A stretch of 62,929 nucleotides of DNA, counting the filler, from Reclinomonas americana ATCC 50394 (lineage: Eukaryota), in NCBI GenBank assembly GCA_048213135.1. It is 12 parts of 12 records of this genome, joined end to end, with 100 filler letters (N's around TTAATTAATTAA, not from the genome) between each part and the next. Parts side by side here need not be neighbours in the genome. Positions count along the whole stretch, not along the records: positions 44,946 to 62,929 come from AFZH01021330.1; 11 more parts are not named here. One strand, given 5' to 3'. Positions 3,764 to 62,929 of this stretch are shown piece after piece (within the stretch, counting starts at the first letter, position 1; the number at the start of each line of letters is the position of its first letter). The notes beneath the pieces are model-generated. The model saw nothing but the letters and a program-made list of their open reading frames with translations. It made no database searches and was not told the DNA's origin. A program made the translations under genes and the position numbers.

Positions 3764-3863
3764 NNNNNNNNNNNNNNNNNNNNNNNNNNNNNNNNNNNNN
3801 NNNNNNNTTAATTAATTAANNNNNNNNNNNNNNNNNNNNNNNNNNNNNNNNNNNNNNNNNNNN

Positions 3864-10562: not shown

Positions 10563-11059
10563 GTGAAGTTGGCGAATCCGTTGGTGGGAATGGGTGGTGG
10601 AAATTGGTCGAGAGAGTGGGGATACGGCCTGTGAGGTAGCTGGGTATTTGCGAGGTGCTATAGTGGTGAGTTGTTGGGGGATGGGGTTTTTTCTCTTGCT
10701 GCAAGCTGAATTCGAATTCAAGCTGTGGAGTACGGATATCGATATCGGATCGGATCCGAACCGACCGTTCTCTCGCAGCCGATGCAGCTGTGGCTCGCCG
10801 GCCCCAAGCAGGAAGATGCTGGTATATTATGTACGCCACCTACTTCGAGAATTGACCGAGTGGGTTGAAAGGGAAAAGGCGATGCATGCATTGGAGGAAA
10901 ACCGAACCAAAACCAGTTTCACTCTCGGATCAACTTCCAGCGAGCAGGTTCAGCCCCTGCAAACTAGTGAGTTGCGACTAGCTTCTTTGTCGACCTCTGA
11001 CCTCAAATCTCAGGCGACGGCAAGTGCGTCCTCTGTCCCAGTTGGCTTATCTTTGTTGT

Positions 11060-22036: not shown

Positions 22037-22217
22037 TGAGGGGAAGAAGAAGAAGAAGAAGAAGGAGATACAATATGGCGCTGACATAACAACGAGACAA
22101 AAGAAAGAGGGAAGGAGAGGAATGCAAAAAAATGTAATCGTTTGGTTGGTTGAACGATTGTGCGAATTTACATTCATTGTGTTGTGTATGCCCCCGTGGG
22201 AGACACCCTTTGTTCCA

Positions 22218-22912
22218 ATGGCATCTGTGTGGCAGAGACTGAAGAATGCGACAACCGGAGGCAACAGCAGCGACGGAGACTCACTGGAGGATCTCAAGTG
22301 CCCGTGCCAGTTGTCCTTCAAAGAGCGCATGATTGGGTGCGAAAGAAGCAGACAACTCTCTCACACTCTGTGTCTCTCGCGCTCTCTCTCTCACACACGC
22401 AATGTGCACAGGTTTGGCATCAGCTTTAGCATTGGCGCGCTTCTGATGTTCCTCTCGTTCCTCTTTGTCATGTCGATCCAACTGACCAAGTTCGCCGTAA
22501 TGTACTCCCTCGGCAACGTCTGCGCCCTCTGCTCCACCGGATTCCTCATTGGACCCTGGCGACAAATCAAACAAATGGTCAGTCAACTCGCAAGTCACTG
22601 TGAGATCTTTTCGTTTGTTTGTTTGACTTTGGGTGGCGAACAGTGTGCGCCTGTGCGAGTGGGCGCCACTCTCGGCTACGTGGGCGCCATGGTGATGACA
22701 CTGGTCAGCGCACTCAAGGTTCGACTTGTCCCTCCACGAGTGTGGCAAACTCATTTGACTGACTAGCTGTGCAACAGTTCCGCAGCTTCCTCCTCACCAT
22801 GCTCTTCTTGCTCATTCAAATCGGCGCGATGATCTGGTACTGCCTCAGCTACATCCCGTTCGGGCGGAGGATCTGCAAAAGCTGTGTCGAGTCGGCTGTC
22901 ACGGCTGTGTGA
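22218..22912 (+). CDS. SFT2: Vesicle transport protein SFT2/Got1 family
   Basis: LSFKERMIGF, KFAVMYSLGN, STGFLIGPWRQIKQM, WYCLSYIPFGR; four TM segments. Confidence 0.93.
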
Positions 22913-27986: not shown

Positions 27987-30201
27987 TCAATCGCCGGCGA
28001 GCAGCTCCGACAGTGGCATGTTGATGATTGCGGTGAGAACCGGCTGATCGGACTTTGGGTGGCACACAAAGACGCGGATGGCCTCGGTGCCGCCGCTCTC
28101 GTCGACGCACACCACGTCAATGTCGAAGCGGTACTGGAGCGATGGTAGCAGAGCCGGGATCTGTGCCAGGTAATAGATGAGCACTCGGAGATGACACGCG
28201 GCGCGGTCTCCTCCACCCACACGCAACGTGGAGGACGGGTGTCTTGACGCGGTACAGCTGCTGATTGTACAGCAGCGACAGAGGCAAATCAAAGAGCGCA
28301 CGATTGCCGGTGTTTTGCAGGAAGAACTTGAGTTTGAACAGAGGTCCCAGACCCTGCACCTGTGTCGCACAAGAGACATTCCTGGTGAATAGAGAGAGTA
28401 GAAGGAGGTGGCACACAACCAGGCGACTACATGCCTGCGCAGTCAGCCGAAGATTTGCACCCACACCCGTGGCTGCAGCGCCGCCGTCGGAAATGATCTT
28501 GACGAATGCGCGCGCCGTCGACAGGCGCAGCTTGCATAGGTCTCGCTGGAAAACGCGGTGCATGTCTGCCGCGAATGTCACATCAAAGTCGCCAAGCCAC
28601 ACACAAACACTGCACACACGGACCGACAGAGAATTCGCGCTCGCGCTGCGTCTGCTCCAGATACAGCTTGGTCTTCTTGGGGATCTGCAGCGGCTCGTCT
28701 TGTTCCTTGGGAGGGCCACCGGTTGAGCCGCGACCCGTGAGGTTCGCCTACGGTGCAGCAAAAGTAGTGAGAACGAGAGTGTCTTCTTCCAGCGTCTAGC
28801 CACACGCGAATGCACGAAACGTGGCGCGGCAACACTCGAAAGTCGAAACCGCCGCTCTTGTAGGAGGTGACGAGGACATTATCCTCGCGACCAAACGAGC
28901 CAAACTTCATTCCCGTGATCACCTCCTGCAAGAGCACGCATCGTTAGCAAGTTCGACGCCGAGGACAGCCATACGATATAAAGAATACATGCCTTGGTTT
29001 GCGTCACCGAGATGAGGCTCTGGCCCGCGTACACTCGAATTTCGCCATTTTCCAGGCCGACGATCAGCGCCTTGGTATTGCGAAGGCGCTCCGACAGCAG
29101 CTCCATGTTCGACACGGGCGATGGCAGGTACACTGTAAATTGTTTCGTGCCCTGCGACATGCACCACGCAGCATGCCACAAATGAGGCGCACAACAGACC
29201 GAGGGAAGGCACACACGCGACGCGACGCAACCCTGATGGAGTACGAGCTGAGCATGCCATTCATGGTGGCAATCATGATATTCTTGTCAACCAGAATCAC
29301 TTGCGACGGTTGCGACTCCAGCCCAATGGAGCCCACAATGTCACGTTGCTGCGCGGGGGCACACAGCGAGTTATTGAGAGGCGCGAGATGCACACGAGAG
29401 CAGTAGACGAAACAACCTCAACTCACCCGAATAGAGTACACGGAGCCATTCCGACAAGCCACCACCAGGCGGCAATCAACATCCCACTGACCGCTGCAGC
29501 AGATCTGGAACGGCACAGCTGGCAATTGGATCTGCATTGACACATATGAGCCGTGCTGCGATGAACGAAGAGACAGAGAAGGCAGCGCGGATCACGAAAC
29601 TGTCTCGATAACCCTCAGATTTGTCGGCTCCAACACTAGCAGCTGCATGGCCTCGGTGCCGACCAGCAGGCACGACAGCGCGTCGCGCTCCTCGCGATCC
29701 TTGTTGATGCACGCCAGGCACGTGATCACCGACTGCATGCAAGACAAGAGTGAGCATGCGAGAGGATGGCATCAACCCGCAAAGCCTCCTCGTGTGCGCA
29801 CCTTGTGCGCCAGCGGCAAGTTCTTTGTCTCGTCCACAAACGCCGCCTGATCATCAGGGCTATCCATCGTCAACAACTCCAACGACCGCGACGTCAACAT
29901 CACTGGCGGCGCGCCAGCCGATGGCCCTCCACTCTCCTTCAGATTCTCCAACATCTCCCGCGCCTCCGCCACCGTCAACGCCCCATCCGCCAAACCCGTC
30001 CACACCGCCTGCTCATCCTCATGAATCGGCAGATCCGGCAGCGTAAACTTGTTGTACGGTCGCAGATTGCGGTACACATAGATCGAGGAACCACCGGCGA
30101 CCGCCAGTGACGGTCGTCGCGGCTCATTGTAATCCATGTAAAACGCGGCCACAGCCACAGGTGCAATCAGCAGCGCATTCGTCGACACCAAGCTCGTACC
30201 T
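27987..30201 (-). CDS. BBS1: Bardet-Biedl syndrome 1 BBSome subunit (5' end in gap)
   Basis: LAVAGGSSIYVYRNLRPYNKFTLP, FGSFGREDN, PKKTKLYLEQTQRER, MHRVFQRDLCKLRL, VQGLGPLFKL, C-terminal INMPLSE. Confidence 0.95.
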
Positions 30202-43348: not shown

Positions 43349-44945
43349 ACTTCATGTCGTACTTGTCGTACAGGTTCGCTGTGACCGACCGCAACGTGTG
43401 CTTCGACAGATCGTTCCACAGATTGTTGTACTCGAAAACCAAGAAGCGCGTCGTCCGCTGCTGGAGGAACTCGCTGGCTCCCTCCAGGGCCTGGCAGGAG
43501 GTCAGAGCAACGCCACAAGCAAACGGAGGAGATAAAAACTCACCATCGGGTCGCTGCCCTCGCAATCCAGCTTCATGAGGAAGCACGGACGATGGAAGAG
43601 GTTGACCTCACGCAGGAGGTCATCGATCTTGTAGACCTTCACCTGCACCTCCACGTCGCCAGCCTGCACCGATCGCGCGCCCACTGATCCGACGCGATCG
43701 CCAGCAAAGCCTGTTGGAAAAAGGAGGGGAGGGGCGAACATGAGAAGATCGAAAGAGAGAGACGAGAAGGAGAGAGAACGAGAGAGAGAGGCAAATACAG
43801 GGTGAGAGAACGAGAGAAAATAAGGAATGAAGAAAGGAAGAAGAGACACAGACGGAGGCAAAGGGAGAGAGAGAGAGAGACTAAGTGAGTGAGAAGGGAA
43901 GAAAAGAGACACAGACGGAGCCAAAGGGGGAGAGGGAGAATAGATGGGTGTGACAGGAAGAGGGGAAGAAAGAGACAGAGATGGAGACCGAGACAAGGGG
44001 AGAGAGAAGCAGAAAATGGGTGGGTGTGACAGGAAGAGGGGAAGAAGAGACCGACACGCAGAGAGAGGGAGAGCGGGAGAGAATGGGTAGAGTGCCAGGA
44101 AGAGGGAAAGAAAGAGACAGAGATGGAGACCGAGACAAGGGGAGAGAGAGGCAGAAAATGGGTGGGTGTGACAGGAAGAGGGGAAGAAGAGACCGACACA
44201 CAGTGAGAGAGGGAGAGCGGGAGAAAGTGGGTGGGTGTGCCAGGAAGAGGGAAAGAACGAGACAGAGATGGAGGATAGAGAGAGAGGATGAGTGCGTGGC
44301 AGGAGGAGAGACAGGAGACTGGCACTCACCCGTGGTGTAGAACACGGACTCGCCCGAGAAGTCCGACACCGCGGCTCTCACGAGCACAGCACCGGCGTCA
44401 AACCACTTTTGCGTCTGCGCAGCGTGGAGCAGCTGCTCAAAGTTGAGCGGCATGGGCTCCACAAACAAGATCGGCACTTTCTGTTTAAATGTGCCACTGC
44501 GACGCAAAGGACAGTGAGACAGTAGTAAGACGACAGACAAGGCAGCAAGCGGCATTACGAGACTCTTCTTGCGAGTGACCTGCAAAAAGACGATACAAGA
44601 GTTGAGCGCGAGCGAACAGAAGATTGCAGCAAACAAAAAAAAACTCACCAGCAAACTGCTTCAGCATCTGAATGCCCTCCTCGCCCAAGTTGGCACCAAA
44701 GTCAGTCATAAACGCACCCTCCGATGGGTCATACAGATCGACGATCAAGGGAATCAGAGTCTGCACAATCAGTGTCAACAGAGATGAAGAGGAAGAAATC
44801 ACATCAAAAGAAGCATGCAAACCGATGCATCCACAAAGCCAGTCGNNNNNNNNNNNNNNNNNNNNNNNNNNNNNNNNNNNNNNNNNNNNTTAATTAATTA
44901 ANNNNNNNNNNNNNNNNNNNNNNNNNNNNNNNNNNNNNNNNNNNN

Positions 44946-44992
<47 letters not shown>

Positions 44993-45306
44993 GAGAGTGA
45001 CATGCTTGTCAAACAGCTGATACGAACAAAAAAACGAGTGCGTCCACGCAACTTTGAGCATTGACAGACGACATGAAGACTCTGCGAAAGTCTGCCACAG
45101 TCACCTCCGCTGCACGAGCAACACACACACAGTGAGCACACACACACAAGGCATCGCATCTCTCACATTCGCGCGCGCTCTCTCTCTCGTTGCTCTTTGC
45201 TCTCTGTGAACAAGCACGCACCTGTGACAGAGGCGCAGGAGACACACACGAGGAGTGCCACCAATAGCAGCACCTGTGCGGGTGCACTTCGGCTGCACGT
45301 GTGCAT
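43349..45306 (-). CDS. FkbM-family SAM methyltransferase, copy D (3' end lost in gap; internal gap)
   Basis: Signal peptide VLLLVALLVCVSCA; DFGANLG, FVEPMP, AAVSD, MKLDCEGSD, LVFEY. Confidence 0.8.
43945..44275. repeat. Intronic ~140-bp purine-rich tandem duplication
   Basis: AGAGACAGAGATGGAGACCGAGACAAGGGG...GCAGAAAATGGGTGGGTGTGACAGGAAG occurs at 43971 and 44113. Confidence 0.8.
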
Positions 45307-45700
45307 TTTTGTTTTGGAGGCGATGATGAATGCACAAACAACCAATTTTCGCGCGCAAAACTCCGAACTCAGAAACGGGATGGAAACTGCATTGGGCCCG
45401 TCTTTCGTGGAAGGGGGAACGCATCACGTTTCCTCGGTGAGCGTACAGTGGATTGGCGACTTCTCGAGATTCACATCGCAGCGATCTTGACCAGGCGCGA
45501 GACGTGTCACCCGCTGCGTCATGTCTCGTGTTCAGCTGCTGAGTGGCGAAGACTTGTCACTCGTTGGAGAGAGACCATCGGATGGCGCGCCAGTGTGCGT
45601 GTTTGCGAGAGGGAGAGAGTCGTCCGAGGGCACTTACACGACAATGGCAAACCCGTGGTCGAACCTTGCACACGGGAAGAGCAAACACATATTTCTTTCA

Positions 45701-48221
45701 TCACCAAATGTCTGGCATCGGTGGCGACGCTTTGCGGAGTCGCAGCTCGCGCAGTTCTCTTCTCACGTCGTCCAGCGGCTCCGAGGCGTGGGCGTCAAAT
45801 ACTGCAAAGGCGTCGCGTAACCTGTCGTCGGGGAGCGCGTACCACGACGACCAGATGGTGGTGAAGGCGGGGTCGTCGGCGTGCATGCAGAAGACATTGC
45901 TGTTGTTGGAGGAACAGGAGAAGTAAGTGACAGACACAAGTCGGCAAAGAGATGTAGACACGAGAGACATGCACTCTCGGAGGCACAGAACGGAACACGC
46001 TGGGGGAAGAAGGAAAAGAAGGCAGGAAAAACAAAAACCGTCGACCCGCCCATTCTCACACACAGACCTCCACCAACTGCGACACACAGAGACGGAGGAG
46101 AGTCAGTCACTTGCAAGGTACCGCAGGCGAGTGGTGTCACAGCTAAACGCACTCCAATTCCAACGATGGGTACCACCAGCGTCCGTAGAGCGGAGCCAAG
46201 TAGTCGCTGGCCATGAGGAAACATCTGCACACAGAGTCAGAATCAGCCGAGCACGAGAGAGGCAGGGCGTGGTCGCAACTTGAGCCCGTACTGCTCAAAC
46301 AGGCTCTCGGACACGGTTTCAAGCGTATTCGACGACATGAATGGCCACAAGTGGCTGTACTCAAACACCTGCACAATGCGTGAGTCACGAATGTGAAGAC
46401 AGGCGCGTGTTGACCGAAAACAAACCAAAAATCGAGGCAGTCGTTCGGTAAAGTACTCGTGCGCGCCCTCTAGCACCTGCAGCACCAATCATGATCAGTA
46501 GGAGATAGCAAGGAGAGACTCAGTCTCTCTCCCTCCATCCCTCTCTCTCTCTCATATCAACCAACCAGTGGATCGCTGCCTTCGCAGTCGATCTTCATCA
46601 GAAAGCATGGCCGCTCGAGGAGATCGTGGTCGCCCAGCAGTCGATGGACGGTGGTGACGTTGACGGGTATCTCCACTGCGCCTTCGGGGCTCACCTGCGC
46701 GCCAAGAGCGGCCCACTCGTCGCCGACACGACCTGCACGATTCCGTGGGCAATGAGCACCCAGCAAAGTGGTGCACTTTTCTCTGCCCACTCGCCGTTCG
46801 AAAACAGCAGGGAGGTGCCGACGTGATTGGAGACGGCGGCTTGCACAGGCTTGGCGCCAGCTTCCAGCCATCCACCGAACGCCGCCTTGTGCGCCAGCAT
46901 CGCAAACGTTTTGGGCATGGGTTCCACAGCAAGAACCGTCACTGGTCGACTGAAGCTCTTGTCTCTGCGTGTCGCGGTGGTGAGGCATACTCAACTCGTT
47001 CAACAAGGAGGGTATGCACGAACCGCTGGAGACCTGCTCTTGCGAAGAACCAACAAAAGATGTGAGGGCAAGAGAGGAGAGTAGGTGAGAGGGCAAAAAA
47101 GAGCGCGACAACTTGCCTCCGAGGTGGTGCAGCATGAGGCGAGTGGCGCCGCCGAGGTTGGCGCCAATGTCGACACAGAATGAGTTGTCGTCGTCGGTGA
47201 ACAGGTGGGCAATGTGCGGAAGGAGGGTCTGAGGGAGGAGAGGGTGAGAAGGGGAGGAGAGAGAGAGATGAAGGGAGAAGAGAGAGAGAGGGAGAGAATG
47301 AAGGAACGAGAAGAGAAGAGAGGAAGAAGAAGGAAGACTGGAAGAGGGAGAGAGATACATGCACCGAGAAGGGTTGAGAGGGGAGATGAAGGGGAGACTG
47401 CAAGACAAAGAGAGAAGAAGAGACAGAGAAGGAGAGAATGAAGGAACGAGAAGAGAAGAGAGGACGAAGAAGGAAGACTGGAAGCGAGACACACCGGGAG
47501 AAGGAGTGAACGGAAGACAATGAGAGGACAGGCAAGACAAAATGGAGAGAACAAATGAAGAAGAAGGAAGACTGAGAGAGGGAGAGACGCACACCCAGAG
47601 GGGAAGGGAGGAATCGAGAGACTGGAAGAGAGACAAGAGGAGAGAGGGAGAGATGCAAGGAGAGACTGCAAGGCAAAGAAGAAGAAGAAGAGGCAGAGGA
47701 GGGAACGAAGGAACGAGAAGAGAGGAGAGGAGAGGAAGAAGAAGACTGGCAGAGGGAGAGATACATGCACCGAGAGGAGGAGAGAGGGGAGAAGTAAGGA
47801 GAGAACGGAGGGAAGAAGAGAGGGAGAGAATGAAGGAGAGAACAATGAAGAAGAATGGAGACTGAAAGAGAGAGAGAGAGAACGCAACAGACATGCCCAG
47901 TGGCCCGAGATCATACTCTGCGCACAGACAGAGAGACAGAGAGAGATGAGTGCACATGCATGCATCGACGACTCTCACAGAAACGAATGCGCAACTGCGT
48001 TGCTGAATGGTCTCTGCGTTGATCACTCGTGCCTCGTCAAACGTCAGAGGCACACCTGAGCACACACAGTGTATGAGAGAGAGAAAGAGAGAGAAAGAGA
48101 CGAGTAAGAGGCACTGACCTTCCGCGCGTGCCAGAGAGGAGCAGTGGCATGCGGAGAGAGCAATGCTTATGCACAGCAACAGACATAGTGAGGAGGCAGT
48201 GCCTCTCCTCGTCTCCTGCAT
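45701..48221 (-). CDS. FkbM-family SAM methyltransferase, copy E (most divergent; signal peptide)
   Basis: DIGANLG, AVEPMP, AAVSN, MKIDCEGSD, VFEY, WWSNVFC. Confidence 0.85.
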
Positions 48222-48268
48222 TCGTTGTGTGACAAAAAAAGAACGTCGAGAAGTCAACTTCGTTTCAC

Positions 48269-50001
48269 TCATGACTCGTCGTCGACGGCATCCTCCTCCT
48301 CCTTTGTCACTGCAGCTGCAGACACTGCGGGGAGGTTCTCTGGTGGCAGCGCGCCTCGAATCTCCAAAACGCGTTGCTCCAACGCGAACAGGTACTCGTC
48401 GTGCGCCTTGTCGCCAATGTGTCGCAGAGCCGAGCATAGGTTGACCAGGTACTGCACGGGCACGTAAGGTGAGATGGCTGCTGTTACGTTGCCCGTGTCT
48501 CCGTTATACGCCACGCAACATCGACATTGGGGCCTGACGCGCCCACGGAGACGGCAATGGTCTGCGCGCACTCTTCTAGCGGCAGATCGACTGGCGGCGA
48601 AGACAACAATTGGGACAGAGGCACGACAGGCACGGAAGGAAAAAGAGCAACTCACCAGCGAAGAATTCGTTGTCATGCGTTCCCAGGAAGAGCATGCACT
48701 GTGGAAACCGATGAGCGACAAGGGTACGACTCTTGAAAACTTTCTTTTCCTTGCTCTCGCGGTGGCAAGCGTGTTCTCTCTCTCTCTCAGAGAACAAAGA
48801 AGTGTAAGAGGTTGACGAGTAAGAAAAAGAGACGAACAGAAGAGAGGAGAAGAATGAGAGAAGCAGAGACCAACAGGAGGCAGGAATAAACCTCGAGTCC
48901 TTCTTCCATTCTCCCTTGCATCCCACTCCAGCGGACACCCTGTTAGCGTGTTTCTCCCACTTTCGTCGCCCATCCTTCTCCTGTTTCCTCTGCTCCCTCT
49001 CATTTCCCTTCTCATTCCTGCTTCCTTTGCTCCCTCTTATCTCTCTCCGTCCCTTTCCCATTCTCCCCTCCACACTCGCCCACTCCCGTTGGAGACCCTG
49101 TTGGCCTGTTTCTCCCACTCGTGTCACCCATTCTTCTCTCTTGCGTCTCTCTGCCTCGCGTTCTCTTTCCCTTCCCTCTCTCCCTTCATGCCGCCACACT
49201 CGCTCGCTCCCGTCTCACTCCCTCTCCCATTCTCGTCCTCTCACCCATTCGTCTCTCTCACTCCCTCAGCTCCCTTTCATCCGTTCTTCTCTCCCTCCCT
49301 CCCTCTCCCCCTCCCATCCCTTTCCCTCCCCTCTGTCTCCCTCTCTCTTCTCCTCTTCTCCCCACCTCCTCCAACACCGGCACCGCTTGCTCCTCCTCCG
49401 AATCATACACCGCCACCGTGGTCTTGGTGTACCCCGCACGCTCCCGATGATCCAAGTGCGCCAGCACCTCACTCAGACGCTCCTCAGCAATCTCATACAC
49501 CGCACCCCAGCAAAACGCAGTGGACGACGCTGACGGACAAAAGGGGGGGAGAGGGGAAGGGAAGTGAGATGAGGTGTGTTGCCGCACAGACACGACTGAG
49601 ACAGGCGAATGATGCATGATGATCATCAAAGCAGGGCACCTGGAATGAGAGTAACCACCAGGCCAAGACGCTCAGGCGTACCCTGCACACACATACACAA
49701 GATGATTGCACACACACACTGCACAATCTCTTGTCGCCTGTCATACCCTGTGCACTGGATCGCGCTGCACTCACGCGTCAGTCACTGTCACACGTACACA
49801 CTACACTACACACACGTACACAACAAGCGATTCACCTGCCAGAAGCGCCGCTCAAAGCCGCGGATGCATCCCTCGAAACTGCACACACACATGATCGTGA
49901 GACACAAGCAGTGACATATAAAGGGAAGCGTGCACTCACCGTCGCACAACAGGAAAGTCGACTTTCCACACCAGTGAACCGTAGCCAAAGAGGTACGGCA
50001 T
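48269..50001 (-). CDS. CHAC: Glutathione-specific gamma-glutamylcyclotransferase ChaC
   Basis: LFGYGSLVWKVDFP, RRFWQ, HR|GTPERLGLVVTL, WGAVY, LDHRERAGY, GASGPNVD|YL, DEYLFALE. Confidence 0.93.
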
Positions 50002-50498
50002 CTCTGTGCGTCACGAGAAGAAAGACACAGAGAGAGAGAGAGGACACAACCAATCATGTACATGCATGACTTCGCCAGCATCGCACGTCGACTTTATCGT
50101 ACTGCTCTATAACCTCCGTCTTGTGGCCACCTCCCCTCCTGCCAGGGAGATGCGATCGAAGCGTGGGTTCAACGTCGTGCCACTGTGCAAATGATGCGCA
50201 CAATTAGTATTGCAAAATTGGTTTCGCATATTTATTCGACCTCGCTGGTGGTGTGCAGGCGCCGGCTGTGCACCACCGAGTTGGAGACGACAGGGAGGAT
50301 GCTTACTGAGTGGAGCACACAGTTGATGGCCAGGAGTAAACCAATCGATTATTATATATCATTCCCGCGCAAAAGAAATCGTTATTATTGCTAGCTGTTC
50401 CGAACAACGTCCCGCAGGCACACCACCCTCTTCCTCCACTTCAAAACGCACACACATTGGCGTGCCGTGTGACCATCGCACACGCCATCGCACACGCC

Positions 50499-53400
50499 AT
50501 GATCGCGAGGGCGCGCAGTGCTCCTCCATGGCATCGACTCGTCGCTGTTCTCGAACGCCTGTTTCTCTCCCACTCGCTGTTCACGAACGTGGTAAGTATG
50601 CCCTGGAGCTCCCTCTCTCTCTCCCTCCCTCCCTCACTCCCTCTCTCTTACACACTCTCCTCCTCCCTCCCCGCTCCCTCTCCCCCTCCCTTTCTCACTC
50701 CACACTCCACCCCACAAACAGCGCTTTCTGGACGCCGTGTGCCTGTTGTGGACACTCGTCGCCTCGTTCGCCACGATCTTCTCGCCCTCTCTGTGGCCAG
50801 CTGCCGGCACCTCCGTGTTTGTCGGCGCTGTGCTTCTCCCGCAGGTTCGTTGTCCGCCTTCTTTTTTCTTCTCTACAAACGCCTGAAACGTGAAACAGCA
50901 CAATTTCTCGCTGTCACGCTTCCACACCGCCTTTGCGTATGCCACCATTTACGTGCTGCTGCTTGTTGCACAACTGTGGTGGGCATGCTATCGTCGTCGT
51001 CGCCGTGTGGAGAGCGGCAGTCGAAGTGTGTCGCTGGGCGACACACTGTTGCGATGGCAGGTGAGATATCAGCCTCGTTGTTGTTTGGTCACAGCACGGA
51101 TCAATGAAAATGACTTACCTCCACACAGTTGCTGCTGGTGGTGGGACCACTGCTGTCACCACTAGTTGTGCTGCTGCTGCGTCCCCTGCATTGCAACTTC
51201 ACGACGCTGCAGCACTTGTCGCTGGTGCTTGGCGAACATGCGGGTCATCATGTGTGGAGTTGCGTGCATCGTCGTCACGCACTGGCGACCTCTGTGGGAC
51301 TCACTGGCGCTGTCGCAGTGTGCAACGAGGCGACGAACCTCACTCTGGGGGTGGTGGGCATCTTGATGGCTGCTGTCGTGGGAGTGATTGCGACAGTGAT
51401 TCCACCATTGTTGCGCATGCGCCTTCCTGCCGTCGTCTCGTCACACACCGTCCTCATTGTGTGCCCCACAACAAAAGATCAATGGATTTCCGACCGAGCT
51501 CCCCACTGTGGAGTGCTGGCGTGCTGAGTGGTCGATTCGTGGCCGTCGTGAACGCCATTCGCCTGCTCCTGGCCGTGACGCACACATTCGCCGCCTTTCA
51601 TGTTCCCCTGTTGCACCTGGGTGTGGGCACTGTGGCATCGAGCGCGCTACTGTTCATGCTCTACACGTTTGTGCCGATGTATTCCACGGTGGCGTCGCGA
51701 GTGGCCACCGCGGCGTGTCTTGCGACACTCGTCGCCTCTCTCGGCTGCGCGGTGTGCGTGCTGGTGCCATCGGGCACCAGCTGGAGAAATCTGGTAGTGG
51801 TGGCCAGTGGAAGCGTGCTCGTTGCCGTGGCCACCACACTCCTGTTGATGCAAGTGCGACGGCGAAGTGTGCAGCGCTCCATCAGCTCGTACCTCGAGGC
51901 TGCACAGTCGCCGAGTGAACGGGGGCTGCTGTTTGCGGTGCGTTGGTGGCGCTGGTGGCGCGAACGCATCACCTTTGCCTTCCTGCGCCTCACCACCCAC
52001 TCCCACAGGTCGACCGCGAGTCACGATTGCCAGTGGGGCATGAACGAAGCTCCGAGGAGGTGGTGGACGAGGAGGAGCGCGAGTTGCTTGCTCGCCTCTT
52101 CCCTTCGCCGTGGGCTGTGGAGATCGCGGCGCGGCTCCCCCCCGACCACGTTCGCGAACCGTGGGCGCGAGCCATGGACTTGTTTGAGCTCGGTGCGTAG
52201 AGCCTGCCACAACCACGCAAACACCCTCCCTCACACTGCGCGCCAGGTACCCTGCAATTCGCGGCGGAGTCCGACACCACGAACGGGTTGATCGTGCGCC
52301 TGCTTCACGCCATTTACATGTGGAGTCACCAGACGGAGCTGCCTCAGGTGCAGAGCATCGTTGCCGAAGTCAGCGCACAGGATGCGGTAAGGCGAGTGCT
52401 GCCGTTCGACATGCGGCGTGTGATGCACGTCATGTCCACCTCCATGTCAGCTTCCAGCGCTTCCAGCGAAGCGCCTTCGTTTCGCGAGGCCTCGTATCGT
52501 TCGCGGCTCGCGGCCGTACACCAAGAGTGGTGCCAGTGCTTTGTGTTGTCGCTGGCGGCGTGGAAGCATCTGGAGTCTGGCAGAATGCGTCCAGGTCTGT
52601 GAAGCCTCCTTCATGTCACCCAGCTATCGTGGGGATAGTACTAACGAGAAGGGGTGTGTGCCTACGAGCAGGGGACCACAAACTCGTGTCGCTGTTACTC
52701 TCGCTGCGTGAGCAAGAAGAGGCAGTGGATCGTCTGTTTGTTGCGATGCTCGATGACTTTGCCGAGATGCACTGGCAAGCAGAGCTTCTTGCTTGGCAAT
52801 CGTCGGTCAGTACCTGTGATCCATTCATCTCCCTTTTCCACTCGGCGCTGAATGTGGACGTCGGCTGCAGTTTGTCGCCTCCGTACGAAACGATGCGGCC
52901 ATGGCACATCGTCTTGAGGTAAAATCGAATACTCTGTACCGGTTGCTCGAGACCCGCGTGGCAGAAGTAGGCGATGAGTCGGAGCGGCTCGCCTCGCTAC
53001 GCATGGCTGCCATGGTAAGCTGCTCTGTTGACGGTCACCGACGTTGACAGTTCCGTCAGCGACGCTAACTTTGCGTGTACTCTCCTCGCAGCGGCGGTTG
53101 CAGATGATCGCCAGTGGTGTCGTCAGCAGTGATCAGGCGTCCGAGGACGCGGAGTCGAATTATGTTGCCGAGTTCACCAGACTTGATGTGCAAAGTACGT
53201 GCTTGCTGTGTCTTCTGTTCTGCGTGCACATGGGCGGCGCTGACACGCAGTTGGGAATGGAGTAGTGCAGGCACTCGGAAGGCGACTCAGCAAGTCCACG
53301 CTGTCGCCGAATTCTGTAATGCCGTCGATGCGCACGCTGTACAGTCGACGAGACAGTCGAGGTTCGTCAGCGCGGTTCTGTCAACACACTGCCTCATCCG

Positions 53401-56400
53401 TCCTCACCATAGTGGCATCCAGGACCATCGTCACCAGAAGCCTCGGGTGCCGCTGCCGACTGGCTGTCTGCCACGGAAGAACCGAGCGAAAAGGACGCCT
53501 CATTTCGTGTGCCACCTCTGTCAGATACTGGCGATGCCGCTAGTTGTGATCAAGCCGATGATGCCAAGCAGGTTTATCCTACGCTGTTCTCTTCTCGTGG
53601 CTCGATGGCTGACACTGTCGCGATGCAGTCGCCGCAAACCTCGAGTGCTGGCGACAGCAAGTCCAGCAGCGAGGATTCGGTGTGGGAGCCAGTCACGATT
53701 CGCCAATCCAGTTGCGTGCGTGCCGCTATCAAGAGTTATCATCCTATGCGCCTCTAAATGCAGCGACTACAGCTGTGCCATTGAAGAGCGCACCACCGAC
53801 TCGCCGCTTCGCCGACCTCCCACAAAAGTGCGACTCGTATCGGCGAGCATACCCACCGACTCTTGCTGACCGCGTATTATTGGCAGGTCACTCTATCGTT
53901 GTCCAAGCACTCTGTCGAGTACCAGAGCTGGCACCCTCGGTGACAGTGCAAACTCACACATGTATCGCTCGACGATTATCTCCGAGCACGTTCGTATCAC
54001 CATTTCGATTGATTTGTGCTGCCCCGAATGACCAACTTGTCGCGCGCAGAACCCGACCATTGTGCGCGCCAGCTGGGCGTTGTGGTTGACGTTCATGGCG
54101 GTAATTATTGCACTGATCTTTGCTGCCATTGTTGCCAAGATTACCGTCAGCGATGTGTACCGTCGCCATGAAGACTACGAGAGTGTTGCCGATGCTGGGT
54201 GCGTTCTGCCTCCTCGCTCAACGGCCTCTGCCTGCTGTTCCTCGCCGCTAATTCGCCTGCGCACAGTGTGTATGCCACCATGGCCAGCGTCGCCGCTCTG
54301 CAAATGCACTACTATGCCAAGGTGGACTTGCCCTCGGGTTCCGATGCGCGAGTGCAAGAGATGCGTGCGATGATTCGCGACAATATCACCACTGTGCGAG
54401 AGTCGATGGACCTACTGGCTACCCAAGTGTTGCGTCCGTTTGGAGGGTTGGATGCTTGTCGTTCTTTGTTGCTCACCGCCTTCTCTTGTGAGAAACAGTG
54501 ACCAGTTCGACAACGAGTTTGCATTTGCCAACGTTTTCACTCTGTTGTTCAACTCGAAGACTGCGTATGCTGGACGCAAGCTGCAAATGCAATTTGACGC
54601 GGTGACAAAACACTATGATGATCTGATGGTTTGCTCCAATCTCCGGCTGCTCCATGTCTGTCGCTGTGACATCATCCTGCATTGCTTGCCTGCGTCACAG
54701 TTGTACGCACAACAGTCGTTCAAGAACGCCGGCACGCCGTCGCTGCAGATGCCAGCATTTGTGGAGGGCATGAAGAATGCCATCGGCAACAAGGAAGCGT
54801 GGTACGCAATCGCACACGAACTGGTGGATCACATTGTTGTCCGTGGACTGGAGTTGAAGTCGACGCTGTGGATTGAGATGGGAATTGTGACCAGGTGCGC
54901 CTTGCCATCTCTCCTCCTGTATCCCTTAGTCGCTCATTGTCCTCCAATTGCAGCGTCATTGGTGCTGTGGTATTTGGACTGTTGCTGCCGGCGGTGGTGA
55001 TGGTGCGCAACAAGCTCAACGAGGGACTGGCCACGTGCCGGCTGGTGCCGAAGAAGGAGGCAGCGCAAATGCGACAACAAGTGCAGGCTCAGTACCTGAA
55101 TTATCTGGACCTGTCGGACAAGGCCCGCAATGTTGAGTCGCCACGAGCAGCACTGTGATTCTGGCAGGCGCTCATTGTGTAATTTGTTATTCAGGGAGTG
55201 CATCCGTCGACTGTGGTCAACTCCAAGTACTTGCCCACACAATGCGTGCGAGCGGACATGCAGTTCCTGCACAGCCTGACCTTCCGCAGTGTGGTGGTGC
55301 TATTGGTGGTCATTGCCACCATCATGACGATGAAGTTGCGTGATATGGCAAAGAGTAGGAAAAGCCCTGCTGTACCGTGCTGCTTACACTGTGTGGCGTG
55401 CTCGTGCGCAACAGCTGGACATCGACAGAGATTGCCGCCACCACATCGCATGCCATGCGTACTGTGGACTTGCTGATGCAACGGACAGCAGACATTGATA
55501 CCATGGCGTTGGCGGTGTGGCAGCACACCACGCCGGACGGGTTGCTGTCACCGGACGACACGCTGGCGAGATTAGCAGATCAAGTGAGCAAAGCAGAACA
55601 GTCATCTGTGGCCGCACTGGCCGTGGTTGACAACGGTGGGCTGGATTCGGCCACCGACGACCTTGAGCACGCCATGTTATACAGTGAGCGATGTCGTCTG
55701 GAGGACCGTGCTGCCATTATGATGACCGAGCCGCGGTGGAGAGTGGATGTCGATTGTTTGCCGATGAACTCATTGGTAAGTATGTGAGTGGAAATGCATG
55801 ATAATGCAAGTGGTGCTTACGAGAGCACCGCAACAGATATCCGATGTTGTGGCTACGAGTCGCATTATTGTGACTTCTGGAACAGCTGGGGGATCCGTGG
55901 CGGTCGGCCTTCGCGACATGATATTTGCTGCGCATCCAGTGATTCACGAGTACCTCCTCCAGAGCTCAGATGTGCGTTTGAATACTATGAAATGGTTGAC
56001 GGTTCTGTCTTGCTCACCTCACCGTCCCTCACCACGTTGTACAGTTGTTCAAGACCTCTTTCGAGCGGTACTTGTACAGACTCGTGGTTCTTGGACAAAC
56101 GATGTTGGGACTGGGAATCGGCGTGACAGCGATTGGTTTCTTCTACTTGCTGGCTCCGTTGTTGCGCGTGTGCGACCAGGAGCTGCGGTACTTCAAGAAG
56201 TTCGTGGCTGCACTGCCTTCGGCCGCCATCAACTCGGTGCCAGAGTTGCAAAAGGCGCTTCTCCCTCGTTGCGTGACGGCTGGATGCCTGGTGATTCTTG
56301 TGTGAGGGTGAGGGATACTCAACCTGTGAATTCGTGTCGTGTGGTGGTCGCTGGCAGACTCGCTGCTGGTGTCGATTCAACTCAATCAGGAGTTGACGGC

Positions 56401-59400
56401 AAGTGAGCATGCGCTGCGAGATCTGACGTCCAGTTTCGTGGTTTTCGTGCCTGTAATTGTCTAGTATTCTCCGTAGCCACAGTCTCACCCGATATTGCGC
56501 AGGTGTTGGACTTGTGTTTACAACAGAAAAAGTGCGTCAGTGTTAGTGTTGGCGTTGTGCTATTATTGCTCCGCACGAGAAGATACTTATTCCCTTGGTC
56601 TGTGCAGCTGATCGTCGAGTCCGTCAACGCTTCATTTTCGCACCTGCTGGGCTACGCAGCTGACGAGATTGTGGGCCAGCACATCAAGGTACGACTTTCG
56701 TGTGTCTTCGGCAACACCCGTTTCTGCCAATCGCCAAACATTGTTGCTGCCGCGTAGACCATCATTCCACCATCGTTCCGAGCTGCGCACGAGTTGCTTG
56801 TCTCCAGACGGCTGAATCAGACACTCGGTATCCTGGCCTCCGAAGCTCCACCTCTCCGAGTCGACCGGCAAACGTTGGTGAGTGTGTGTCGAGTGTGCGC
56901 TGCTCGGCGTGCAGTCCGCTAACGCTTTTTTTCTCGAAAAGGTGCGACATCAAAATGGGACGGATATGCAAGTGCAAATCATGATTCTGGAGGTGACTGT
57001 GGGGCCTCGTCGTCTGTTTGCAGCGATGTTGCGAGATATTGCGAAACAAATGCAGGCGGCTGACACAAGTCGGCGTTCTGTGAATATGGTAACGATTGCA
57101 CAGTGATTCTTGCGTTCTAATCGTCACTCAGCACTGACGTTCTTCTTTGGACCCAGGTGACCTCCATGTTGTCCACCATGCCACATGCCGCCATTATCAC
57201 CGACGCCAGCGGCATGATCCACAACGTCAATGGAGCCGCTGTTGATCTGTTCGGATACGGCAAGCCCAGCGATCTTACCGGTCATCACATCCGCATGCTG
57301 ATGCCCGCACCACACTCGGAGCGACATGATTCGTTGCGTGATCTGATCGCTCACTCTCGCGGCTGCTGACCGCTGCTCACGCCTCGTGTGTGTGTGTGAT
57401 ATTGCACGAACAGATACGTCTCCTCGTACATTACGCGGCACCCACACAGTGCTGATATGAAGCACGGAGAGGCCAAGTTGCGGCGTCCGTCCACACATTC
57501 TCCATCCTCTGCCTGTCAAGGATCTCACACGCACACACACACGCGCAGATTCCGCGACGTGCAGGGACTGCGCAAGAATGGCACCGTGATTCCGCTCCGT
57601 TACCACACTGTGGATGTGACAGTGAACAGCCAGCGGTACTTTCTGGCAGTGCTGCACGACAATGTCAGCGAGGCACAAGTCCGAGCCGGCTACGAAGAGT
57701 GCATTGACCGATTCAGTGGCATGCTGTCGACCTCCAATGATGCAGTTGCGTTTCTGTGTCGGTCCGCTGAGAGTGCATTCAATTCACATCGCTCACCTGC
57801 ACGTGTGCGTGTGTAGATCTTGTGGGCCGACCACAATGGCATGATTCAATGGTGCAACGCATCCGTGTCGCGCCTGCTTGGCTACACGACCGAGGAGCTC
57901 ACTGGTACATGCTCGCCAGCTGTGCTCGATGCCGTGGGGTGATTTTTGAGACTCACATTTTCGTTGGGGAACACAGCCAATGGACATGCATCAGTGTACG
58001 ATGTGCTGCGGCCAGTGAGCACAGCCGAGTTGCAGAGTGGAGCAATCATGGAGGCGGAGCTGTGCCGGAAAGATGGACAACAGTTGCGTCATTGCGTGGA
58101 GATGGAATGACGGCATGTCATGACAAGAGTATGCGTTTTCAGAGTGCGGCTGGTGGTGCGCGGTATGCACACGGTGGAGGCTGGTGAAGTGCACACGATT
58201 GTGCGTGTTTCAGAGCCGAATGCGCAGTTGGTGCACATCCACAAGCAGGAGCAACACAATGACCGATTGCAGGAGGTACGTGCATGTGCCTCTTTGTGCG
58301 GTATTCGCGCGAACTCACACGGGCTGCTGTTACACAGCTGTTGCGCATGTCGTTCCCAGCGGCAGCACTGGACAAGATCACGGCGTTGTCGAAGGACGAG
58401 GCGCAAGCGATGTTGAGGACGGTGAGCTGTTGAGTTTCGTGTTTCCTGTGAATTCACGCGCTCACTGGAGAAGCAGGATATCGACGAGTCGCGATCACCG
58501 ATGTGCACCATGTTCGAGTATCACGAGGAGGCGACGTGCATCTTCATCAAGATGGTGTCGGTGCAGCGGGTGGTGCCCGAGAGTGGTGCGTGTAAATGTT
58601 GGATTATGCACGAATGGACAGCTGGCTGATTGTGAAAGCCATTGCTTGCAGGCGATGTCGTGGCCCTGCCGCTGGTCGACAAGATCTGTGTGTTGCATGA
58701 ATTGTTCACGGCATTTGATGCATTGGTGCGACGACACAATGTGGAGCGCGTGAAAACGATTGGTGAGTGCGGGCGACTGATGTTTGGGCATTGTTGTAAG
58801 CATCACCCTCATTGACAACGCGATCATGTGTGAAGGATCGGCGTACCTGGCGGTCTCTGGCATGTACGCGCCACGACACGACCACGCCACGGCGATCGTC
58901 GAGTTTGCGCTGGATTGCCGACAGACGATTCTGCGATTGAGTCGCGAGGTGAGGCGAGATGGAGAAGACGTGTGAATGGTGTGGTGTGCTTATGTGATAC
59001 GCTTCTCTTCCGGCTTCAGCGTGGACTGCAAATCAAGTTCCGCACTGGCATCAACACGGGTCCGGTGACCTCGGGAATTGTGGCGGGCCTCATTCGGACG
59101 TTTGATTTGTATGGAGGTGCGTGGTGGTGGATCGAGCCCACCCTGTGCGCCAGCTTTGCTCATCTCCTGCGCAGACTCGGTGAATGTGGCATCGCGAATG
59201 GAGAGCTCGGCGCCGTTTGGTCGCGTCCAGCTGAGTGAGGTGAGGAAGAGGAGGGAGAGGGAGAAGCACATCGATGCACCTGTGCTGATGTCGGGGTGAT
59301 TCTGATCGTCGTCGCATGCAGTCAACGAACCGCAAAACGCGCGGCTTGTTTGAACTGGAGACGACTAGCGTGGAGAGTTGCGTGCGATTCCCGTCGACAG

Positions 59401-59492
59401 CTGTGTTGTATCTCACTCACGATACGTGTTGCACAGTCAAGGGAATTGGATATGTGACGACGTTCCTGGTGGTGCCGCAGGAACAACAATAA
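50499..59492 (+). CDS. Large multi-TM, three-PAS, class III nucleotidyl cyclase-domain receptor (TmcB-like N-terminus)
   Basis: Many hydrophobic exons at 50.9-51.9 kb, 54.1, 54.9, 55.3 and 56.1 kb; PAS repeats at 56.6-58.2 kb; cyclase motifs VKTIGSAY, RTGINTGPV, FDLYG|DSVNVASRMES, VKGIG. Confidence 0.85.
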
Positions 59493-59542
59493 TGATAAAC
59501 TAATGATGTTTAGCGAACGACACGGTACGCTTTCTGCATTTT

Positions 59543-62500
59543 TCACAAGCCATACACGCGCCATGTTGGCGACTCTACCACTCCACCGGTCAAGCCGCGC
59601 ACCTCGTCTAGCATGTGTAGCACTGCGTCTGCGTCCTCGCCACGCACCCGAATTGGCTGCAAAGAGGAACAAGTGTAAGTAGCAACTCATCTCCTCAGCG
59701 AGACTTGCTTGAACAACGCACTCTGAATGTCAGTTCGCTGGCATGCTGACGGCACAAGGCAAGGAACATGTCCATGGCGGCTTGCAATGAAGTCGCCTCG
59801 GCACGACAACCAATCATGAGAAGCGCGAGACAGGTCCGCCCAGTGCATTCTGCGTCAAGACCACCGCAGTTAACGCCAGACACGGGGTACAGACATGTGA
59901 GCCTCGTCTCGCAAGCAAACCTTGTTGGTCCACCGATGGAATCAACTTGACGAGACCGAGTACGGCATTCTCCTCGTCGAACTCGCGACCCTTCTTGTGT
60001 CGCAACCGACGCACATTCTTGCGACTGGCCGACGACGACAAGGAGGTACTCGACGACGCAGAGCTGCGACTGACATCACTCATATCCGAGTAGGCGCTGA
60101 GATCACTAAACGCATCCGAGTGCGCATCATCACCGCCTCCATCCAAGCCATCTCGCGCCAAACCAGGAATACCTGCACGCTTTCATCAGTCACACGCAAT
60201 CAATCCGTGCATCGCATCTCCCTCACCGTGCAATCTTGCGTATTCACGGATCTTGCGCAGTCCGTCGAGCTTGCGCTCGAACCGCTCATGCGTGGCCCGA
60301 ATTGCTGCCTCCTGCGTCGGCGCAGACAGCCGGAGCGCTGGAACAATATTGACGGTGACAAGGTCTTCGCGACGCGACAGACGAGCCTGAATGAGGAGGG
60401 GGCGGAAGAAATGTGAGAAAAGGTTGGGGTTGCGGCGTCGGAGCAAATGAAAACATAGTCACCAATCGAATGGCTTCGAGCCACTGGCTGGCGCTCATCA
60501 ACATCTCCACCGCCTGCTCCGCGTCTTGCGTCCCGTCCACGAGCGCACGCGCAGCACCAACAATGTCACCGCGAGACTTGAGAGCCGCACTCTGCGTCGG
60601 TTGCAGGTCAGTCGTGCGACATCACAGGTGACACACATAGCAAAAAACACACACCAGCTGAGTAGCGATGGATTCTCGCCGCATGACTGCAGTGTCGCGA
60701 TCGCACAAATCGAGGGTGGCAAATGCCTCCGCCACCAATCCACCTTTGGCAAACGCCTCGGCAGCGTGGAGTGTCTGTGGTGGGACGCAGCCCAGGAAAA
60801 CTGCACCGGCATCACGGAATCGTCCCTGTCAACGTCACGCAACCAAGTAAGCCCTATTGCGGGTGCTCCGTAGTAGCATGTGCTTCTCACCACGAACCTT
60901 GTTGCTCAACTGCGCGCCGTAGCTCACCAGCAGTCGCTGCCGCACTCGTTGCTTCCACTCCTCCTCCGACGAAGCAACAAAGAGCTCATTGAGAGCAAGC
61001 TCGTGCAAATCATGGCCCTCTGCCAGGCGCACAGATGTATCCTCCTCCTCGGCGCCCGCGGCACACAGATTGCGCAGCGCACGATCGTAGCGTCCTGCAA
61101 CGTGAGAGAGAAAGAGAGAAAGAATGAGGAACGAGATTGCCAGATTAATCAAGATGCGCAGCTGTCTCACGCAACGGAGATGCATGTCGATGCGGTAGCG
61201 GCGCAGCGATTCGGGAACCGACTGCAGCTGACGAAGGAAAGGAAGGTACTCTTTCGGATCGCGCTGCGACTGCTGAGCCACCATCACAACCAGAGAGAAG
61301 TTGTAGAGGCCCAGCGCCACATTGTACAACACATCCACGTCCGACAGCACAATGAGGTACGCGAGGGCGGCTTGAGCGGCCTCCTTTGATTCCATCGCCT
61401 CGATGCGTTCAACTGCGTTTGTAGAGTGAGCTTCGTGAGATGCAGTGCGCACGGATCAATAACTATTAACCGGTGCGGAGAGCACTCTCCAGGTCGGGGG
61501 GTGACTGGCGTGCAAACGTGGTAATAATGGCGTGGCGGTACTTGATGAAATCCAGACGCTGAACGGTGTGTTGTCATGTCAGCATGTGATAACAAGGAGG
61601 CAGTGAATGGCTGTGGCTACCGCGTACCTCCATGGCCTCGCGGAACAGCTTGCACACGTGATTCACCTTGCCCGGGACGGAACCGGCGTTGGGGAGTGCG
61701 GCATCGTGGTGACCGAGAAATCTGAAGAGGGTCTTTGTCGTGTCTTCGTCGCGCAGCTGCGAGAGGAAGACGTTGAAGTTCTCAATGTCGTCGATCTGGT
61801 GGTGTAGGTGAGTGAGTGGTTATCCAGCACAGAAACGACAAATGCTGCACAGCCTGGGTTTTCGATTCACCTGTCGAATAAAGGCCTCTGGATCGGCATC
61901 GATCTCTCGCGCCGCGAGGTCGTACGCCACATTCATATCCACACGCTGCTTGCGGCAGAGCAGCAGCGCTGTGCCGTAGGCGCCTTGCCGTAGCGCCAGC
62001 TTGATGGCCAGCAACACCAGGGGTCGCGGATTGATTGCCTCCAAGTTGCCGCGAGGCATCTGCAGCACAACACGCGTGTGCACCGGAACGGCGCACACCA
62101 ACAGTGATCCACGCTCGACTTCGCGAGTAAACACCCACTCGGCGGCGTGCTCCTTGGTAAACTGCACAGCACACAGTCATGATGTGGGGAAATGGGAGGA
62201 TGGCGGCCACCACAAGTACCTCATCGAGAGTGGCGGCTACGGAGCTGGCCACAGGCACAATTCGCAACTGGTGCGAGTAGGTCGTGTAGAGCAGGAAGGA
62301 CTCGTGTACGGCAAACGAGGAGCACTCGGAGGAGACGAGGTGCGATCCAGCATAGAGCTGACCGCGCGCAGAGAGTCCCACCAAGCATTCTTCGCTTCCA
62401 AACTGCAATGCACGCGCATAGTTGTGGTGAGTTTTATCGCCCCACATAAAAGAGAGGCGGCAAGGCTCACCATCATGCAGCTCGTCTGTGGACACGGTTG

Positions 62501-62720
62501 TGGGAACTGCTGGTCGGGGGCCACCGCAAGCGCCGCAGCGCCACTCTCGCTCAGTCGTGCCGTGAGAATCTGGCCGGAGCGAGTTTGCACAAAGGTTCGA
62601 CCGGTGAACCAATGATGCGCAATGCTCAGCACGTCGTCCTTGGACGATGCGTCCGGTCGCGACAGTGTCGTGGTGCGCCCCGACAACGTGTCGAACTGAC
62701 GAAGCGAAGGATGTCAACAT
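59543..62720 (-). CDS. ELP1: Elongator complex protein 1 (5' part beyond window)
   Basis: REVERGSLLV, VLQMPRGNLEAINPR, RKQRVDMN, ALGLYNF, QQSQRDPKEYLPFL, RYRID, basic KKGREFDEE region. Confidence 0.95.
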
Positions 62721-62724
62721 TTGG

Positions 62725-62929
62725 AGACACACACACACATATATGTACACACACACACACACAGTCATTCACTCACACACATGCACACACAAACAGGCAC
62801 TCACACACACAAAGGAACACAAGCACACACTCACTCATACACACACACACACACACACACTCACTCACTCACTCACTCATACACACATACGCACACATGC
62901 ACACACACATTGGCACACACACACATACG
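62725..62929. repeat. CA/CACT-rich low-complexity tract (intronic)
   Basis: Imperfect (CA)n and (CACT)n runs to the window end. Confidence 0.85.

Follow-up and report, generated by a model that had tools for sequence, protein, structure and literature searches.

A predicted multi-PAS protein of Reclinomonas americana whose single class III cyclase domain lacks both metal-binding aspartates: a possible C2-type subunit

In the VC1/IIC2 structures of class III cyclases, one chain gives the pair of Asp residues that bind the metal ions and the other gives the base-specifying pair together with the transition-state Asn and Arg. Complementary half-site heterodimers of this kind are the textbook design of the animal adenylyl cyclases (ACs) and of soluble guanylyl cyclase (sGC), and the single-domain cyclases of microbes and protists are generally taken to be symmetric homodimers. 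Class III sites are built across the dimer interface, and heterodimers that complement missing catalytic residues are an established design (PMC8815786); in the same account, the rhodopsin cyclases of chytrids are obligate heterodimers though all of their catalytic residues are kept. The homodimer of the sGC beta chain is inactive (PMC3591389). Here we analyze a gene of Reclinomonas americana ATCC 50394 (GenBank assembly GCA_048213135.1) that lies in a stretch of 62,929 nucleotides of eukaryotic DNA (57% G+C), called the window below, in which 12 contigs are joined end to end. The gene is on the last piece (positions 44946-62929, record AFZH01021330.1), which is without N. Its 3' end is predicted to encode three PAS domains, one of them resembling the heme domain of FixL, followed by one class III cyclase domain in which neither metal-binding Asp is present.

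The cyclase domain and its catalytic residues

The cyclase gene is long and intron-rich and is read on the + strand; the region under study is its 3' end. An earlier note had assigned the cyclase domain to positions 58501-59492. The end of that interval coincides with the stop codon; however, the interval comprises a series of short + strand exons and not a single open frame, and its first position is an internal Met, the first exon of the domain starting at 58471 with a linker exon (58338-58421) in front of it. Our model of the C-terminal part has 17 exons (56608-59492) that encode 601 residues in one open frame ending at the TAA of 59490-59492, with 16 introns of 49-82 nucleotides, all GT-AG. 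Seven of these exons (58471-59492, + strand), separated by six GT-AG introns of 58-82 nucleotides, make up the cyclase domain. Since six introns split the domain, every residue call depends on the splice model. We have confidence in the 17-exon model, the junctions of which are predicted from sequence; the upstream exons were placed by tblastn homology to three relatives described below (P0124, P0039, and P0186) and by reading of splice sites. The exons of the domain are:

58471..58585, + strand: cyclase exon 1, strand beta1 and the degenerate metal/phosphate loop IFIKMVSVQ (Lys 58549-58551; SVQ 58558-58566)
58652..58762, + strand: cyclase exon 2, ends in VKTIG (substrate Lys 58753-58755); PF00211 positions 32-57; PDB matches AC8, AC5, and Rv1625c
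58836..58948, + strand: cyclase exon 3, starts (G)SAYLAVSG (Ser 58838-58840); PF00211 positions 59-89
59020..59116, + strand: cyclase exon 4, GINTGPVTSGIVAG...FDLYG (adenine-specifying Asp 59104-59106); PF00211 positions 98-127; PDB alignments
59175..59239, + strand: cyclase exon 5, (D)SVNVASRMES (Asn 59183-59185, Arg 59195-59197); PF00211 positions 129-149; PDB alignments
59322..59376, + strand: cyclase exon 6, STNRKTRGLFELETTSVE, placed by the profile alignment of the spliced domain; donor GTTGCG
59437..59492, + strand: cyclase exon 7, the last, (I)KGIGYVTTFLVVPQEQQ and then the stop (KGxG Lys 59439-59441; TAA 59490-59492)

Exons 2-5 each match PF00211 singly (E 0.0003-0.0068), and the matches are collinear over profile positions 32-149. 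Scored against a profile that we built from 236 cyclase domains of 137 proteins, the spliced domain of 193 residues reached 141.4 bits (E 1.4e-45) and covered positions 14-200 of 204 (187 positions). Since the PF00211 exons are collinear and the profile match is nearly full length, the cyclase domain is real and complete. Exon 1 alone was too divergent to be placed by Pfam or PDB search, its one PDB match, Spindly (E 0.6), being due to chance. The last splice rests on its fit to the spacing of the family because retention of the last intron also stays in frame.

Three whole-domain alignments (phmmer, MAFFT, and our profile) agree in placing the Lys encoded by AAG at 58549-58551 in the column of the first metal Asp, as in the phmmer alignment to P0124 (LFVDVVGFT; KTIGDAYM), which extends over residues 3-191 with 84.9 bits. 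The Ser encoded by TCG at 58838-58840 stands in the column of the second metal Asp in the phmmer, MAFFT (237 domains), profile, and PDB alignments: GSAYLAVSG of exon 3 aligns with GDSYMVVSG of Rv1625c, and the VKTIG of exon 2 is matched, in AC8 and AC5, to IKILGD in the first domain and to IKTIGS in the second. Both replacements had been read by the earlier note and are borne out, as are the substrate Lys and Asp and the transition-state Asn and Arg that it had called intact, all four of which lie in aligned columns. Judged by sequence, the specificity pair Lys/Asp is of the ATP type.

To compare domains we used seven signature columns, namely the first metal Asp, substrate Lys, second metal Asp, substrate Asp, Asn, Arg, and the Lys of KGxG. 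The signature of the window domain is KKSDNRK, in which the substrate and transition-state residues are kept in 5/5 columns (Lys, Asp, Asn, Arg, Lys). The commonest signature in the sample, SKSDNRK, belongs to 87 second (C2) domains of animal type-9-like cyclases, and the window domain matches it in 6/7 columns, differing at the first metal position. First (C1) domains of animals read DSDDT[K/R]x, and domains with a full site read DKDDNRK (29 domains). Both metal columns hold Asp in 133/133 domains of the type that has the pair (D/D-type). The loop after the first metal Asp has also changed: in D/D-type domains it is G (131/133), F (131/133), and T (132/133), and in the window domain S, V, and Q; the 99 C2-like domains mostly have N, F, and N. 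The first metal position and the substrate Lys are 46 residues apart in the window domain. In C2-like domains the distance is 43-47, and in every one of the 133 D/D-type domains it is 40; we give this spacing little weight because it is not evident that the additional residues fall at one and the same point.

These comparisons show that the metal- and phosphate-binding half of the site has been lost as a block and that the half serving the base, the ribose, and the transition state is complete. In C1 domains, which do not need the substrate half, 4/5 of those residues have drifted. Since C1 domains let four of these five positions drift, the half kept in the window domain is probably still under selection, and this is our main argument for such selection.

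No single sequencing error explains the Lys or the Ser, since an Asp codon is two base changes away from AAG and three from TCG. Ways of restoring the Asp residues by splicing were considered as well. No other AG or GT near either of the two key junctions yields Asp when the sequence is read, no exon with FxDIxGFT or KxxGD occurs in any frame of the window, and retention of the intron after VKTIG gives a Glu and then a stop after 16 codons, with no Asp.

A second cyclase domain was sought throughout. Among 90 stop-free + strand stretches of at least 32 residues between 50300 and 59500, Pfam found PF00211 in four only, all of them within 58636-59296, and the matches on these stretches of the gene included no H-NOX family. 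Searches of 1615 six-frame stretches of at least 20 residues from the window with the spliced domain (phmmer) and with three motif patterns returned the domain's own exons only, the next match having E 3.4, and the profile of 236 domains found no second cyclase domain in the same 1615 stretches (next best E 0.51), with the caveat that 968 masked bases and exons below the length cut-offs could hide one. The earlier note's finding that the gene has no C1 domain thus extends to the whole window. Little follows from this for the real neighborhood of the gene, since the window is made up of 12 joined contigs.

PAS domains, linker, and setting of the gene

Upstream of the cyclase domain, the model contains three PAS domains and a linker, preceded by a probable N-terminal part:

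57157..57744, + strand: PAS domain 2, FixL-type (exons 57157-57332, 57414-57476, and 57549-57744)
56608..57088, + strand: PAS domain 1 (exons 56608-56688, 56758-56877, and 56942-57088); weak PAS_9/PAS matches on the first exon
57817..58275, + strand: PAS domain 3 (exons 57817-57904, 57977-58082, and 58143-58275); PF00989 match (E 4e-5) on the first exon
58338..58421, + strand: linker exon LLRMSFPAAALDKITALSKDEAQAMLRT (begins LLRMSFPAAALDKI...), found by sequence reading; precedes the cyclase domain
51482..56541, + strand: probable N-terminal part of the gene, a crude ab initio chain of ~24 exons and ~1044 residues with ~8 hydrophobic segments

In FixL, the loop Arg of the motif IGIGR contacts bound O2. 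The first exon of PAS domain 2 matches PF00989 (E 1.2e-9), and its seven best PDB matches are all heme domains of FixL (E 2.5e-8 to 3.6e-4). The His encoded at 57325-57327 aligns with the proximal His of FixL in 1D06, 2CMN, and 1DP6, and with that of P0045, a protein annotated at its source as a FixL sensor kinase. Splicing from the donor TC/GTTGCG at 57332 to the acceptor at 57414 yields the motif HDSYVSSY, comparable to HDSYISRY of FixL and HDSYVKHY of P0039. When spliced, the domain aligns over residues 3-145 to P0045 (67.9 bits) with HDxY aligned, and its loop Arg (AKFRDVQG) aligns with GIGR of P0045, a gap of 5-6 residues standing just before it. The second exon searched alone against PDB gave chance-level matches to SAM synthetase only. 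A review of PAS families calls the proximal His the main determinant of heme binding (PMC10468136). Considering this His and the FixL likeness, PAS domain 2 is probably a FixL-type, heme-binding gas sensor.

PAS domains 1 and 3 also keep a His at the FixL position, with weaker evidence than for PAS domain 2. The former aligns by tblastn to a PAS repeat of P0039 and has its His at the position of the FixL proximal His (AHELL, codon 56788-56790). The latter aligns by tblastn to P0186 and has a His in GHASVYD (codon 57985-57987); the segment just before the conserved His appears to be absent, and 57904/57977 is the least certain junction of the model. In-frame TGA codons at 57940-57942 and 58108-58110 split PAS domain 3, and both fall in modelled introns (57905-57976 and 58083-58142). 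The domain is left without its pre-His segment because the modelled introns take out both codons, which may point to degeneracy of the domain or to an error at the 57904/57977 junction. The linker exon appears to resemble the LLxxxLPxxVAxxL element found in front of class IIIa/b cyclase domains.

The N-terminal part was obtained with our own dynamic-programming exon chaining, trained on the 17 C-terminal exons, and some of its exon borders are probably wrong. It contained no recognizable domain, Pfam at E<=0.05 giving chance-level matches only, and the ~8 hydrophobic segments are a hint of a membrane anchor, nothing more. The donor GTTGCG, as opposed to GTGAG or GTGCG, is used in 5/16 introns of the C-terminal model (57333, 57477, 57745, 58083, and 59377) and recurs several times in the crude upstream chain; it looks like a common second donor type of the organism.

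Tail to tail with the cyclase gene lies the gene of the Elongator subunit ELP1 (59817-62768, - strand), with Pfam matches to its three-helix bundle, alpha-solenoid (E 1.7e-21), and second beta-propeller (E 7e-15). Positions 62600-62929, up to the end of the window, are an imperfect (CA)n-rich repeat, several reading frames of which give His-Thr repeats. Other contigs of the window carry genes for a GNAT acetyltransferase (10982-11890, + strand), a Got1/Sft2-like protein (21879-22763, + strand), and the GAE domain of BBS1 (28120-28878, - strand). The last, a Bardet-Biedl gene, suggests an organism with cilia or flagella. Eleven spacers between 3764 and 44945 (e.g., 3764-3863 and 44846-44945) each consist of 44 N, TTAATTAATTAA, and 44 N, with stops in six frames. 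They appear to be artificial, marking where contigs of a draft assembly were put together, and order or adjacency across them is not to be trusted. Some of the joins adjoin microsatellites of the types (GA)n, (CAG)n, (CGTA)n, and (CA)n.

Relatives and described systems

A search of 1.84 billion representative proteins with a PAS exon gave 4218 matches at E<=0.001. The best of them (P0001-P0030), mostly from metagenomes, are giants of 1700-5490 residues with up to 13 tandem FixL-like PAS repeats, and no output domain was recognized in the five giants that were scanned (P0001, P0003, P0004, P0008, and P0016). In the best 150 matches, three proteins have a cyclase domain too, among them P0039, which belongs to a diatom cluster (Conticribra weissflogii, MMETSP transcripts). 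A search with the cyclase domain of P0039 retrieved further diatom multi-PAS cyclases and then animal type-9 adenylyl cyclases. Word-index protein searches with stretches of exons 2 and 3 gave 60 and 148 candidates, respectively, none of them at E<=10, and neither the protein of the window itself nor any near relative came up. Two other multi-PAS cyclases, P0177 (HJC23_012051) and P0184 (HJC23_012052), are encoded on a single 437-kb contig of Cyclotella cryptica under consecutive locus tags; the signature of P0177 is the full one, and the cyclase domain of P0184, matched by Pfam in two pieces only, was left out of the alignment.

The diatom multi-PAS cyclases (clusters of P0039, P0186, and P0177 from C. 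weissflogii, Seminavis robusta, and C. cryptica) and P0124 resemble the window protein in having several FixL-like PAS domains and one C-terminal class III cyclase domain, and they align along the 601-residue part. However, they keep the full signature DKDDNRK, and their cyclase domains are only ~35% identical to that of the window. Searching open-access papers and preprints, we found no characterization of these relatives and no paper on heme-PAS half-site cyclases in protists or on a single-domain protein that joins a FixL-type PAS to a C2-type half-site. The best phmmer match of the window domain (92 bits) is P0183, a protein of 1037 residues with two cyclase domains (326-527 and 823-1007) that read TKNDNRK and DKDDDR-, i.e., C2-like and then C1-like, the reverse of the animal order. 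In a tree, the window domain falls in no well-supported clade; it joins a loose grouping (SH-aLRT, the Shimodaira-Hasegawa-like approximate likelihood ratio test, 86) with second domains and the first domain of P0183, where long-branch effects are likely. The tree gives no firm tie to the animal C2 clade and does not speak against one, and the C2-like pattern may be inherited or convergent.

Among described enzymes, the C2 domains of animal ACs (IIC2 in 1AZS/1CJK and the second domains of AC9) share with the window domain six of the seven signature residues, the loss of the GFT loop, and the longer spacing to the Lys, and the KTIGS of the AC8 and AC5 C2 domains aligns with the KTIGS of the window. 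They differ in that a C2 domain is the second domain of its chain, after the second membrane block, and the window domain is the single one on its own chain; moreover, the first metal position holds Ser or Thr in C2 domains and Lys here. The residue pattern of a mammalian C2 domain that the earlier note had seen is therefore present as far as the signature and the lost GFT loop are concerned, but it is a likeness of pattern only, in a different architecture and with no placement from the tree.

The beta1 subunit of sGC, the animal NO receptor and an alpha/beta dimer, is alike in that a heme sensor, a PAS domain, and a linker stand on the chain from which the one shared site takes its base and transition-state half, and the PDB matches of exon 3 include its catalytic domain. 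In sGC, however, the heme is held by H-NOX, and the window protein would use a FixL-type PAS; the specificity pair is Glu/Cys (GTP) in the former and Lys/Asp (ATP) in the latter, which is also probably membrane-anchored. Rv1625c/Cya of Mycobacterium tuberculosis (4P2F, 4P2M, 1YK9, and 7YZ9), the best PDB match for exon 3 and among the best for exons 2, 4, and 5, has a class IIIa-type Lys/Asp specificity and a membrane anchor followed by a single cyclase domain; unlike the window protein, it has both Asp residues and works as a homodimer. Mutants of Rv1625c without opposite halves of the site reportedly complement each other. To the FixL heme-PAS O2 sensors (1D06, 1DP6, and 2CMN), PAS domain 2 aligns over its full length, including LMPxPHxxRHDxY, the proximal His, and the loop Arg. 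The output of FixL is a histidine kinase in place of a cyclase, the Arg of YISRY (two before the second Tyr) is Ser in YVSSY of the window protein, and the window protein has ~5 extra residues before the loop Arg.

Possible roles of a half-site cyclase domain

Since each class III site needs the Asp pair from one of its two chains, both sites of a homodimer of the window protein would be without metal ligands, and such a homodimer should be catalytically dead; on this point the reasoning of the earlier note follows from the established class III mechanism. The selective loss of one half of the site fits a C2-type subunit resembling sGC beta. We therefore favor the possibility, which we put a little short of even, that the protein is the C2-type subunit of a heterodimer in which a separately encoded chain supplies the Asp pair. 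The earlier note had proposed a heterodimer with a C1-type partner, a reading that our results support in part. Of the two ATP sites of such a heterodimer with a second cyclase-domain protein, one would work and one would be degenerate, and the PAS sensors would set the output of cyclic AMP (cAMP) through the linker. The place of the partner could be filled by a dedicated C1-type paralogue or by a full-site cyclase of the ordinary kind; in the latter case the window protein might act as an attenuator.

Several observations weigh against this heterodimer, and some of them suit a different reading, in which the domain is a non-catalytic pseudo-cyclase that forms homodimers, makes no cAMP, and serves the PAS receptor as a dimerization or scaffold module or as a metal-free ATP sensor. 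The two metal ligands have been lost, as has the GFT loop, and no partner cyclase domain was found in the 12 contigs of the window. The window domain is at most 35-38% identical to any domain retrieved, and in a tree of 75 rows its end branch is the longest, at 3.76 changes per column versus a median of 0.14; such fast divergence is also expected of a domain freed from catalysis. A Lys at the first metal position is out of the ordinary, given that S, T, or N stands there in the 99 C2-like domains, and the pattern is known from one sequence only. Among 34 single-domain proteins, 28 read DKDDNRK and six are partly gapped or truncated, with no residue other than Asp at the aligned metal positions, so that the sampled family, as far as its sequences tell, gives no sign of a heterodimeric habit; these rows are not independent because many belong to one 90% cluster. 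What speaks for catalysis is that the residues for base, ribose, and transition state are kept in all five positions, whereas C1 domains drift at four of the five, and that mere ATP binding would hardly need the transition-state Asn and Arg. We hold the pseudo-cyclase to be unlikely, but it has to be taken seriously.

The attenuator named above, the dominant-negative regulator of the earlier note, can also be considered on its own: the protein would pair with full-site cyclases and cut their two sites to one, or lock them off, with the PAS sensors deciding when. Its residue pattern would be identical to that of a productive C2-type subunit, full-site relatives exist in the wider family, and in Leishmania one receptor cyclase is said to be negatively regulated by a paralogue. 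A pure inhibitor, however, would not need the Asn, the Arg, or the Lys, and we consider this role improbable. Still less probable, in our judgment, is an artifact or a decaying gene, i.e., a splice model that is wrong at the two key junctions, a silent gene, or a young pseudogene. Exon 1 was not recognized alone by Pfam or PDB search and the assembly is a draft of joined contigs, but one open frame runs across 17 exons with canonical sites, and neither an alternative splice site nor an exon with the canonical motifs gives Asp, the intron after VKTIG reading into Glu and a stop. An active homodimer of unconventional chemistry, for example with the amine of the Lys replacing a metal ion, has in its favor the positive charge at the first metal position and nothing more. 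Both Asp residues are kept in every one of the D/D-type domains, class III cyclases that lack the pair are not known to us to be active, and we give this idea hardly any credence.

Returning to the C2-type subunit, we tentatively suggest a more specific form of it, which we rate as somewhat unlikely as a whole: a protist counterpart of sGC, in which a membrane-anchored chain with a FixL-type heme-PAS and a C2-type half would join a separate C1-type partner, O2, NO, or CO controlling cAMP through an obligate heterodimer. As a dead pseudo-cyclase, in contrast, the domain would be an ordinary degenerate signaling domain. If the suggestion is true, a gas-regulated heterodimeric cyclase would have been built a second time, independently of sGC. 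Because full sites persist among the relatives of the window protein, the case would also show how half-site enzymes originate from full-site ancestors. The heme sensor would stand on the C2-type chain in both the window protein and sGC, and the system would make it possible to test whether the sensor-bearing chain must be the C2-type one.

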